Program-made: the position numbers and the translations under genes | Shown: one piece after another, positions 30,165 to 31,414 of the stretch | Numbering within the stretch: position 1 is the stretch's first letter | Layout of the letters: each line of letters opens with the position of its first letter | The notes under the pieces: model-generated | What the model saw: only the letters and a program-made list of their open reading frames with translations | Databases searched by the model: none | Told to the model about the DNA's origin: nothing | From: Gammaproteobacteria bacterium | Lineage (GTDB): Bacteria; Pseudomonadota; Gammaproteobacteria; JAUIAT01 | NCBI GenBank assembly: GCA_030425295.1 | Contig: JAUIAT010000011.1 | Span: 426 to 64,425, forward strand | Reading direction: 5' to 3' | Length of the DNA: 64,000 nucleotides

Positions 30165-31414
30165 CTAGTCGTGTCCAAAGACAACTCAAGGATATAGAGC
30201 AAAAAAATTTAATTCGCTCCCCCTTGTTGTTAAAGGACTATGATGGCCGTTTTGTTGTATATGATGGCAAAAGGGTTTTGCATTTTGCTAATAATGATTA
30301 TCTTGGGTTGTCAATTAGTGATGATGTTAAGGCGTCAGCGATTGCAGCCATAGATAGGCATGGTGTTGGCAGTGGTGCATCAGTTCAGGTTTCTGGCTTT
30401 CACGCGCCGCATCATGATCTGGAGAAAGCGTTTGCTGATCATCTAGGGAGAGATAGGGCTTTAGTTTTTAATTCTGGATACCATGCAAATCTGGGCATTT
30501 TTTCAAGTCTAGTTGGTCGTAATGATGTTGTTATTTCTGATCGTGATAGCCATGCTTCAATCCTAGATGGCATTCAGCTTGCGAGGGCTAATCATTATCG
30601 ATTTAAACATCTTGATGTTGGTGACGCAAATCTGTTGCTAAAAGATTTCTCTGGTGACTGGATCCCGCGGTCAAGCCGCGGGATGACAAAGTTGGGTGAG
30701 TTGCCCCGAGCTACAGAGATATCATCCCGGGTCTCAGAGGTGTCATCCCGCGGCTTGACCGCGGGATCCAACTCATCAAACAAATTCCTTGTCACAGAAA
30801 GCATATTTAGTATGTCAGGAGAAATTTCTCCTGTAAAAGAATTGGCAAAAATATCAAAGCAAAATGATGCTACTTTTATTCTAGATGATGCCCATGGCTT
30901 TGGGATAATCGATTCAAATTATAATCAGAATGATGTCCATGCCATTGTTATTCCTCTGGGAAAAGCAGTAGGCAGTTATGGTGCAATTGTTGCAGGCTCT
31001 AATGAATTAATAAACGCGATTTATCAGTTTGCACGAACGCACCGTTATACAACTGGCTTGCCTCCGCATGTTTGTGCCGCTAGCCTGAAGTCCCTTGATA
31101 TTATAACGAAAGAGACTTGGCGTAGAGAAAAATTGCTAAGTTTAGTTAGTCGATTTAAACAGGGCGTTAAACAAGTTGGTCTGAAATTAGTTGCTGATAC
31201 TGTCTCTCCAATTCAGGGTATTTTGCTTGATTCTCCTGGGCGTGTGGTCGATGTTCAAAGGAAACTTTTAGAAAAAGGGTTTTTGGTGTCCTGTATTCGA
31301 CCTCCAACAGTGGCAAAGAACGCTAGCCGTCTACGTATATCTTTAAGGTGTCTTTTGGAGGATGAAGATATTGATCGGTTGGTATCAGCTTTAGGCGAGA
31401 CTATTCTATCATGA
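30158..31414 (+). CDS. bioF: 8-amino-7-oxononanoate synthase carrying an in-frame ~37-aa palindromic-element insertion
   Basis: PLP enzyme with [19 protein letters not shown] aligning to the E. coli BioF VTEGVFSMDGD..VDDAHGTG. The insertion at 30660-30769 is read as [10 protein letters not shown]...SSRGLTAGS. Confidence 0.85.
30660..30769. mobile_element. MITE-like palindromic element (family A), in frame within bioF
   Basis: TIRs at 30660-30688 and 30741-30769, identical to the asnB copy. The internal sequence differs. Confidence 0.85.

Follow-up and report, generated by a model that had tools for sequence, protein, structure and literature searches.

How elements of the Rickettsia palindromic element (RPE) type spread has, to our knowledge, been an open matter since they were described in 2000. 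The RPEs were reportedly introduced by Ogata et al. in 2000 and 2002 and are said to have been claimed as unique to Rickettsia. Here we analyzed a palindromic insertion within bioF, the gene for 8-amino-7-oxononanoate synthase, in a 64,000-nt stretch of DNA from a gammaproteobacterium (contig JAUIAT010000011.1 of assembly GCA_030425295.1, positions 426 to 64,425; hereafter the window), and compared it with the described systems that it most resembles. The closest of these are the repetitive extragenic palindromes (REPs) that carry a CGTC tag. Families 3 and 4 of this class combine the tag with a 9-bp stem starting with AT, a 5-nt loop, and a CCA tail (Di Nocera, De Gregorio, Rocco 2013, BMC Genomics 14:522, PMC3733652). 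The same survey equated R. conorii CGTC-4 with RPE-4 and CGTC-1 with RPE-6, described dimers with the tags outside (HH) or inside (TT), the latter with variable spacers, and concluded that CGTC REPs have no dedicated transposase. CGTC-1 and CGTC-4 are reportedly missing from R. prowazekii and R. typhi. Its supplement includes intragenic R. conorii CGTC-4 peptides such as WILRSSRGMT and WIPWSNHGMT, single units ('S') being common within genes, and an 'extended RPE-4' is rich in the ATGAC motif (PMC3767692). In-frame insertion of REP- or RPE-type sequences in genes is already known, and the bioF insert is a further case in an unusual host.

The bioF insert is very probably an inverted pair of a selfish hairpin repeat of ~31 nt that belongs to family CGTC-4 of the CGTC-tagged REP class, with the tags facing inward across a spacer that contains a decayed, tag-side partial copy of the unit. 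The gene and the parts of its insert are:

30158..31414, plus strand: bioF (8-amino-7-oxononanoate synthase), 418 amino acids (aa), intact save for a 37-codon insert at aa 168-204; the invariant residues of pyridoxal phosphate (PLP) enzymes are present
30659..30688, minus strand: left REP unit, TGTC-ATCCCGCGG-CTTGA-CCGCGGGAT-CCA (tag, 9-bp stem, 5-nt loop, stem, tail) on the minus strand; translated
30689..30740, plus strand: spacer of the dimer, 52 nt, containing a degenerate partial copy of the tag-proximal half; 18 translated residues
30741..30770, plus strand: right REP unit, TGTC-ATCCCGCGG-CTTGA-CCGCGGGAT-CCA, read as (V)SSRGLTAGS; partial match to NCBIfam TIGR03777 'RPE4'

The arms (30659-30688 and 30741-30770, 30 nt each) form a perfect inverted repeat, being 100% complementary with 52 nt between them, and each arm folds by itself as a hairpin, ATCCCGCGG-TCAAG-CCGCGGGAT. 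An earlier note on this DNA, made from the letters alone, had placed the element at 30660-30769, which is the same feature cut one base short at each end. The insert is 37 codons long (111 bp), contains no stop codon, and keeps the frame; its peptide is hydrophilic and rich in Ser, Arg, Gly, and Thr, and the local G+C content is ~0.40 versus 0.34-0.41 over the window. Exact copies of the 28-mer GGATCCCGCGGTCAAGCCGCGGGATGAC are located at 30660-30687 (+) and 30742-30769 (-) in bioF and at 5848-5875 (+) and 5966-5993 (-) in a second element within an asparagine-synthase-like gene (asnB), confirming that the two elements have the same ends, as had been noticed. When up to 3 mismatches were allowed, the window contained 7 copies, against 0 in 100 shuffles. 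The asnB arms are identical to the bioF arms and are read in the same frames, and both dimers are tag-in (TT) by the HH/TT definition of PMC3733652. Within the bioF spacer, TCATCCCGGGTCT at 30722-34 is complementary to the left arm, TCATCCCGGG at 30722-31 lies within the partial copy, and a 21-nt direct repeat (30705-25 and 30726-46) shows 71% identity, which bears out the partial duplication of the terminal inverted repeat (TIR) reported before.

The bioF element shares its anatomy with CGTC-4 REPs. The tag of the class is CGTC, or TGTC or CCTC in many copies, and both bioF arms carry TGTC. The stem arms ATCCCGCGG and CCGCGGGAT are paired at 9 of 9 positions and begin with the A-T and T-A pairs of families 3 and 4, the loop CTTGA has the 5 nt of families 2-4, and an unpaired CCA stands at the untagged end of both arms. 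As in CGTC-4 REPs, the units occur as singletons, as dimers of both orientations, and in clusters, with tag-out dimers predominating (7 arms in the window; 41 tag-out versus 15 tag-in pairs in the sample described below), tag-in spacers are variable, and intragenic units are read as short peptides. Membership in family 4 rather than family 3 is suggested by the matching R. conorii CGTC-4 peptides and by the presence of the 28-mer in an RPE4-scoring frame of R. tamurae. With RPE-4 itself the bioF insert shares the location of an in-frame palindrome in a conserved housekeeping gene, its lack in the orthologues of other taxa, and its tolerance as an extra loop; as in RPE-4 and extended RPE-4, the arms end in GGGATGACA and are adjoined by ATGAC-like partial copies. 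It differs from RPE-4 in that the dimer is tag-in and the host lies outside the Rickettsiales, the UvrB and BioF relatives being gammaproteobacterial, and from the described CGTC-4 REPs, which come mainly from alphaproteobacteria, in that the host is an uncultured gammaproteobacterium. The palindromes RPE-1 to RPE-3 are unrelated to it and longer.

The earlier note, whose overall reading is partly supported, had suggested a family of elements that vary in size and have nothing but their ends to define them. This family had been described before: the element matches the CGTC-4 REP class and RPE-4. Because TT dimers with variable spacers are part of that class (PMC3733652), the appearance of size-variable elements is explained: they do vary in size and can be recognized only by their ends, but the ends are complete, independent REP units. 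The family was recognized through the REP survey and its supplement, the DNA string and the encoded peptides having given 0 matches in open-access literature text. The words bioF and oxononanoate were absent from the supplementary files of PMC3733652 that were examined; asnB was not searched there. Nothing in Rfam covered the element at the gathering threshold in a scan of the whole window, and the e-value mode over the element gave only noise (E = 0.48). An intein or a group I/II intron was ruled out, the insert having 37 codons only, no intein motifs, and no Rfam match.

To describe the unit across genomes, we scanned one genome per species for the exact 28-mer and obtained at least 112 stretches from at least about 47 assemblies; the unit statistics rest on these listed loci. 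Hosts among the listed matches included many Gammaproteobacteria metagenome-assembled genomes (MAGs), Kangiella, Sedimenticolaceae, 'Deltaproteobacteria' MAGs, Parvibaculaceae, Dongia, and Rickettsiales MAGs, and also Rickettsia tamurae and the Rickettsia endosymbiont of Ixodes persulcatus. The R. tamurae copy lies in a PepQ-like open frame of 666 codons that scores 61.7 bits on TIGR03777 'RPE4', and the endosymbiont copy in a 710-codon open frame identified as recG. Since the same 28-mer occurs in Rickettsia proteins and in a distant gammaproteobacterium, 'protein-coding palindromes' are not confined to Rickettsia. The exact 28-mer had 0 matches in viral contigs.

Neighboring arms in the 112 listed loci and the window formed 41 tag-out pairs (GTCAT ends outward), 15 tag-in pairs as in bioF, and 16 tandem pairs; the unit also occurred alone, and in one locus (L056) as a direct tandem array. 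Each arm is a complete and independent REP unit of ~31 nt, not the end of a transposon, and the interpretation of the ends as TIRs of one element does not hold. The logo of 184 distinct copies from the listed loci consisted of YGTC (T 61%, C 35%), a 9-bp stem, the loop CTTGA, the second stem arm, and CCA, with the final A at 94%, a G following at 64%, and random flanks beyond. Because the flanks are random outside the tail, the proposed insertion motif TG^GGATCC is not a target motif, its TGG being the complement of the CCA tail of the unit itself, and there is no target-site duplication.

Two of the six frames of the unit contain TGA and four are open, including the one read as SSRGLTAGS, which leaves two of the three frames per arm free of stops. 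In the listed loci and the window, open frames of 150 codons or more held 40 of 200 arms (~20%), and each of the four stop-free frames was in use. The observation that the bioF and asnB copies have the same frame and the same terminal peptides is correct; since every open frame is used elsewhere, it carries little weight. Bacterial coding density is typically ~85-90%. The fraction of arms in long open frames is probably lower than this value because selection removes unfit insertions, and those surviving in genes would have passed a filter for being frame-preserving, stop-free, and located in loops. The bioF insert would persist as a nearly neutral one, and insertions that break the frame or enter it in a stop-containing frame would be purged.

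The host gene looks functional. The best family match of the BioF ORF (open reading frame) was TIGR00858 bioF, with 338 bits in two stretches, under the curated cut-off of 426. The protein is homologous to E. coli BioF (1bs0), and the HMMER alignment to it splits at the insert (query 28-158 on chain 29-159, then query 207-412 on chain 168-380). In an alignment of 20 homologues with 41-47% identity, residues 168-204 stood opposite gaps in 19 of the 20, in agreement with the earlier report of an in-frame palindromic insertion. The invariant columns included H132, D243/D244, H246, and K269, the catalytic set of the PLP enzyme by homology with E. coli BioF. An AlphaFold2 model made from the alignment had a mean predicted local distance difference test score (pLDDT) of 86.7, reached at least 90 at 307 of 418 residues, and superposed on 1bs0 with a template modeling (TM) score of 0.88. 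Only residues 73-77 and 168-204 had values under 50, and the second of these stretches coincides exactly with the inserted codons. In the model the insert forms a loop of low confidence (pLDDT 31-41), flanked by helix 154-163 and strand 209-214, the strand that bears the conserved VTE(S/G)xFSM motif, and the core fold was intact; the insert is thus probably a disordered extra loop. The rest of the biotin pathway is encoded nearby:

27795..33409: biotin cluster, complete, with bioA (minus strand) followed by bioB, bioF, a bioH-bioC fusion, and bioD (plus strand)
34312-35124, minus strand: birA, beyond the biotin cluster

The intact cluster, the conserved residues, and the modeled fold are the grounds on which the gene is judged to look functional. 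In this cluster BioH (pimeloyl-ACP methyl ester esterase) and BioC (malonyl-ACP methyltransferase) are fused in one 459-aa ORF, 31411-32790 (+), which overlaps bioF by 4 nt.

Only one BioF homologue (P0031, 41% identical) had residues at this position, namely its own insert of ~45 residues at the same loop (L113 917-963, contig logan:SRR26815636_3229385). This insert is encoded by a different and unrelated palindrome, TTTGATTCCGTCAATCCT...AGGACGAACGGAATCAAA, and its peptide includes LIPSILRQAQDERNQI. The comparison with related BioF proteins thus gave no homologous residues lacking a palindrome, and the P0031 insert appears, from its sequence, to be an independent hit in the same site that marks the BioF loop as permissive. 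The closest BioF relatives were proteins of Gammaproteobacteria MAGs with 41-43% BLASTP identity among 5.8 billion proteins, itself aside (up to 47% in the 20-homologue alignment). The best match of the host UvrB was 76% identical, with Coxiellaceae, Aquicella siphonis, and Legionellaceae proteins at 71-73%. Judged by these proteins, the host appears to be an uncultured, deep-branching gammaproteobacterium with weak Legionellales/Coxiellales affinities.

Although PMC3733652 reported no dedicated enzyme for CGTC REPs, we found a gene lying between such units in other genomes. Candidate enzymes were sought by clustering the ORFs within 400 bp of arms, and one recurrent family emerged, a protein of ~96 aa with a GIY-YIG domain only (PF01541, 56-59 bits). 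The only meaningful match in a PDB search was 1zg2 (UPF0213, E = 0.0016), matches to WD40 proteins being spurious; the 1zg2 protein falls within the 'Slx1-like' stand-alone bacterial group (Dunin-Horkawicz et al. 2006, PMC1564403). The family comprises at least 8000 proteins at E <=1e-10, with no annotation beyond 'GIY-YIG nuclease family protein' or 'putative endonuclease'; contigs of 0.5-2 kb carry many of its members. In the first set of loci, selected by the REP, the gene was present in 16 of the 112 listed loci (13 assemblies), always ~5-200 bp from arms and typically in the layout [tag-hairpin-tail] gene [tail-hairpin-tag]; the cultured strain Kangiella aquimarina DSM 16071 (L033, gene at 1215-1502) provides an example. 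The gene-bearing loci of this set are:

L008, L014, L016, L017, L032, L033, L039, L040, L046, L053, L061, L065, L070, L081, L087, L099

As a reciprocal test, a second set of 80 metagenome loci (L114-L193) was picked solely by protein homology. A YGTC-tagged, GC-rich hairpin was located within 150 bp of the gene in 73 of these 80 loci and on both sides in 52, and 39 of the 80 had an exact hairpin-gene-hairpin bracket with gaps of ~7-20 bp upstream and 0-20 bp downstream. The hairpin density was 6.96 per kb near the gene versus 0.21 per kb elsewhere in the same loci. The third set consisted of more distant relatives (42-58% identity) in 33 IMG/VR viral-contig loci, of which 31 were scanned (L194-L224); 21 of the 31 were flanked likewise, 20 of them on both sides, including a type with an 8-bp stem and a 5-nt loop. 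Three independent locus sets therefore show the association of hairpin and gene. Hairpins flanking one gene shared their class in 97% of cases and were 93% identical, versus 69% and 81% between loci. Nearest-neighbor proteins had the same hairpin class (8-bp stem/4-nt loop or 9-bp/5-nt) in 70 of 73 cases versus ~66% expected, and none of 2000 permutations was as good. Synteny was not conserved, only 6 of 3160 locus pairs of the second set having any common flanking homologue. We found no description of this pairing in literature searches of open-access text.

The arrangement recalls the GTAG REPs/REPINs and their RAYT ('REPtrons'), which, like the CGTC elements, are short tagged hairpins with inverted doublets and hundreds of dispersed copies. 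In REPtrons the gene of the presumed enzyme is flanked by inverted repeat copies, and the REP-GIY-YIG-REP units have the same layout. The systems differ in the tag (GTAG versus YGTC) and in the enzyme, which is a RAYT/IS200-type Y1 transposase in REPtrons and here a candidate, the ~96-aa GIY-YIG nuclease, with another fold and another chemistry. A GTAG REP/REPIN mobilized via RAYT was accordingly set aside as an identity of the bioF element, its tag being YGTC and the gene between inverted units encoding a GIY-YIG nuclease rather than a Y1 transposase.

By its layout, the GIY-YIG gene with its hairpins is a candidate REPtron-like unit, and no better candidate is available for an enzyme that would generate CGTC REPs. 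The agent that mobilizes the bioF element is not encoded in the window; the ~96-aa stand-alone (Slx1-like) nuclease is the best candidate, and mobilization probably acts on the folded single-stranded hairpin, with a cut at the tag. It is possible, though rather less than probable, that the CGTC REPs, including RPE-4, RPE-6, and the bioF dimer, are non-autonomous products of an unrecognized mobile unit of ~350 bp, consisting of the GIY-YIG gene between two inverted CGTC hairpins. The nuclease would then recognize the folded hairpin and nick it at the YGTC tag. Nicking at YGTC would account for the tag-side partial tandem copies, for the identity of hairpins across phyla, and for the absence of RAYT. 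The enzymatic role of the nuclease is a putative one. If the proposal is true, the mobile unit would represent a 'REPtron' whose nuclease fold is not known to drive the spread of bacterial repeats. The association offers a concrete, testable candidate for the enzyme that CGTC REPs and RPE-4 seemed to lack. We regard it as the larger value of the follow-up; the bioF insert alone is of moderate interest, as a clean example of selfish hairpin repeats lengthening essential enzymes without destroying them.

Several points weigh against these readings. The insert peptide does not reach the 23.95-bit cut-off of TIGR03777 (19.5 bits, E 7.6e-4, positions 1-22 of 32); whole BioF scored 16.0 bits and the asnB insert 16.4 bits, and only the right bioF arm matches. 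The shortfall is likely a consequence of dimer orientation, the profile appearing to follow the tag-out layout seen in R. tamurae and the bioF dimer being tag-in. The insert is predicted to be translated, and the enzyme to be active. No empty-site bioF allele was present among the relatives found (BioF <=43% by BLASTP, UvrB <=76%); these relatives are too distant to provide one, and the age and mode of the insertion are therefore inferred only. As to the nuclease, its link with the hairpins is a genomic association, and the gene could home into REP dimers rather than move REPs. Kinship among loci inflates the statistics of protein-hairpin co-variation, and the GIY-YIG gene is absent from the 64-kb window. 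The tag-out dimers, when considered as gene-deleted GIY-YIG units, had genome-specific spacers with no clear remnant signal.

The window contains further copies of the unit:

5847..5994: tag-in dimer of these units within the asnB-like ORF 4446..6461, the second such dimer, 49 codons long and in frame; interior with 24-nt periodicity
15340..15369, minus strand: solitary intergenic unit of the CGTC-4 family, tail CTA
25103..25168: tag-out (HH) dimer of the CGTC-4 family, slightly decayed, 8-nt spacer, intergenic, inside a longer repeat
51291..51357: tag-out dimer of the CGTC-4 family, decayed, intergenic, inside a second copy of the longer repeat

The two bioF arms match each other, the asnB copy, and the cross-genome consensus without a difference, and decay has affected the intergenic copies at 25103-25168 and 51291-51357; for these reasons we infer that the bioF insertion is recent or actively homogenized. 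The longer repeat around the intergenic copies spans 25040-25215, 51220-51395, and, in reverse orientation, 15340-15440. It has ~60 nt of 'tgtagaaaat.aatt.cttatg.ataatgtgtgctaa.attcgg' on one side and 'ttttcat.t.tttactactgttaaagcatataagttg' on the other, and the intergenic tag-out dimers may lie inside, or be targeted to, another repeated element.

The earlier note had called the interiors of the bioF and asnB elements unrelated. They do have no sequence in common, but both contain decayed tandem partial copies of the inner end of the arm. In the asnB spacer, four decayed units led by GGGATGAC recur with a 24-nt period (autocorrelation 0.53, reached in 1 of 2000 shuffles). A 21-nt period was seen in the right part of the bioF spacer, a region picked after inspection (autocorrelation 0.64, reached in 1 of 2000); over the entire bioF spacer the periodicity lacks significance, as 201 of 2000 shuffles did equally well. 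Tandem Repeats Finder did not report these interior periodicities, and autocorrelation with shuffles picked up asnB and the right part of bioF. Undecayed arrays of the tag-side half were present elsewhere: locus L036 has five near-perfect 27-nt copies (96% identity) beside a single unit, and L079 has 21-nt tag-side half copies adjoining a unit. The tandem partial copies at the tag end are:

5867-5965 of the window: period 24 nt
30705-30746 of the window: period 21 nt
5385-5510 of L036: period 27 nt
1965-2050 of L079: period 21 nt

All four periods are multiples of three, yet the L036 array is intergenic; the multiples of three are therefore not simply the result of a coding filter.

These arrays bear on how the dimer arose. 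It is conceivable, although on balance unlikely, that the dimer was built in place: a single unit would have been inserted, nicking or slippage at its tag would have produced partial tandem copies and then an inverted second unit, and the 111 bp would never have moved whole. Such a course fits the common occurrence of single units within genes, the half arrays beside a single unit in L036 (27 nt, 96%) and L079 (21 nt), the decayed 21- and 24-nt periods of the bioF and asnB interiors, and the existence of tag-in dimers with variable spacers. It is harder to reconcile with perfect outer arms around decayed interior copies, as the inverted arm must then be the youngest part or have been homogenized; there is no intermediate allele at hand, and the lack of significance for the whole bioF spacer (201 of 2000) also counts against it. 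A very unlikely origin is that of a classical miniature inverted-repeat transposable element (MITE), in which the whole 111 bp would be a deletion derivative of an insertion sequence (IS), moved by a DDE transposase recognizing the 30-nt TIRs. Perfect TIRs of this length, the small size, several copies in the window, a variable interior, and the 2-bp 'AC' on both sides of the bioF copy would suit a MITE. In the genomes scanned, however, such a pair is a far less frequent arrangement of the arms than single, direct tandem, or oppositely inverted ones, and every arm has the form of a tagged hairpin whose ends are asymmetric. No consistent target-site duplication was seen, the asnB copy being flanked by AA and TA and the logo flanks being random. 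The distant arm pairs that we inspected hold ordinary genes (glycerol-3-phosphate-dehydrogenase-like and pyruvate dehydrogenase E2-like, named from translations alone) and no transposase or IS. MITEs fused in frame with host genes, such as intragenic ERIC and Coxiella QMITE1 (PMC10969869, PMC5896051), resemble the bioF element in being small, having inverted ends, and being read through in the host protein; they differ from it in that the bioF element has no target-site duplications and its ends are autonomous units. QMITE1 (300-400 bp, with an IHF site) and QMITE2 (a GTAG REP with 7-11-nt direct repeats) were considered because of the Coxiellales-like host and set aside, neither having, by its description, any similarity to the bioF element.

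The insert might instead be useful to the cell, which we hold to be improbable: the RNA duplex would serve as an RNase III or translation-pausing site tuning bioF, bioH-bioC, and bioD, or the loop would be an addition to BioF. As RNA, the bioF region is predicted to form a perfect 30-bp helix of -77 kcal/mol (z = -9.3), a very stable structure in mid-operon, and as single-stranded DNA a fold of -45 kcal/mol. A perfect 30-bp duplex within the bioF mRNA would be a side effect of the insert, and an effect of this hairpin on bio operon expression is conjecture. The arms are undecayed though the protein loop should be unconstrained, which would also favor a use. The identity of the units in unrelated genes and intergenic DNA across phyla, however, points to constraints of the element itself and not to a role in bioF; the peptide is predicted to be disordered, and the unrelated palindrome at the same loop of another BioF is what a merely permissive site would be expected to receive. 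Least probable of all, to the point of being barely credible, is a repeat-induced mis-join during assembly or a bioF pseudogene. The source is probably a metagenome-assembled contig, and repeats are able to confuse assemblers. Both flanks nevertheless continue the BioF alignment with no loss or change of frame, the insert is exactly 37 codons long and stop-free, the catalytic residues and the whole bio operon are intact, and asnB has the same kind of clean in-frame insert. The inverted pair of CGTC-4 REP units thus remains the reading that we prefer.

Other structured sequences were observed in the window. A second CGTC-type hairpin family, with an 8-bp stem and a 5-nt loop, TGTC-ACCCCGCA-CTTGT-TGCGGGGT-CTG, is represented by two intergenic tag-out dimers with decayed partners at 22056-22125 and 25261-25335. 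An untagged hairpin, ATCCCGCGA-ATTT-(A)TCGCGGGAT, is located at 27250-27276, directly after the stop codon of an MFS-transporter ORF (25821..27245), and represents a terminator-like structure or, alternatively, a relative of the REP stem that has no tag. The SAM_alpha riboswitch family is known from alphaproteobacteria, and the present host looks gammaproteobacterial. A match to this family (Rfam RF00521) was found at 2000-2077 (-), upstream of ORF 857..2008 (-), with 39.5 bits against a gathering threshold of 36.

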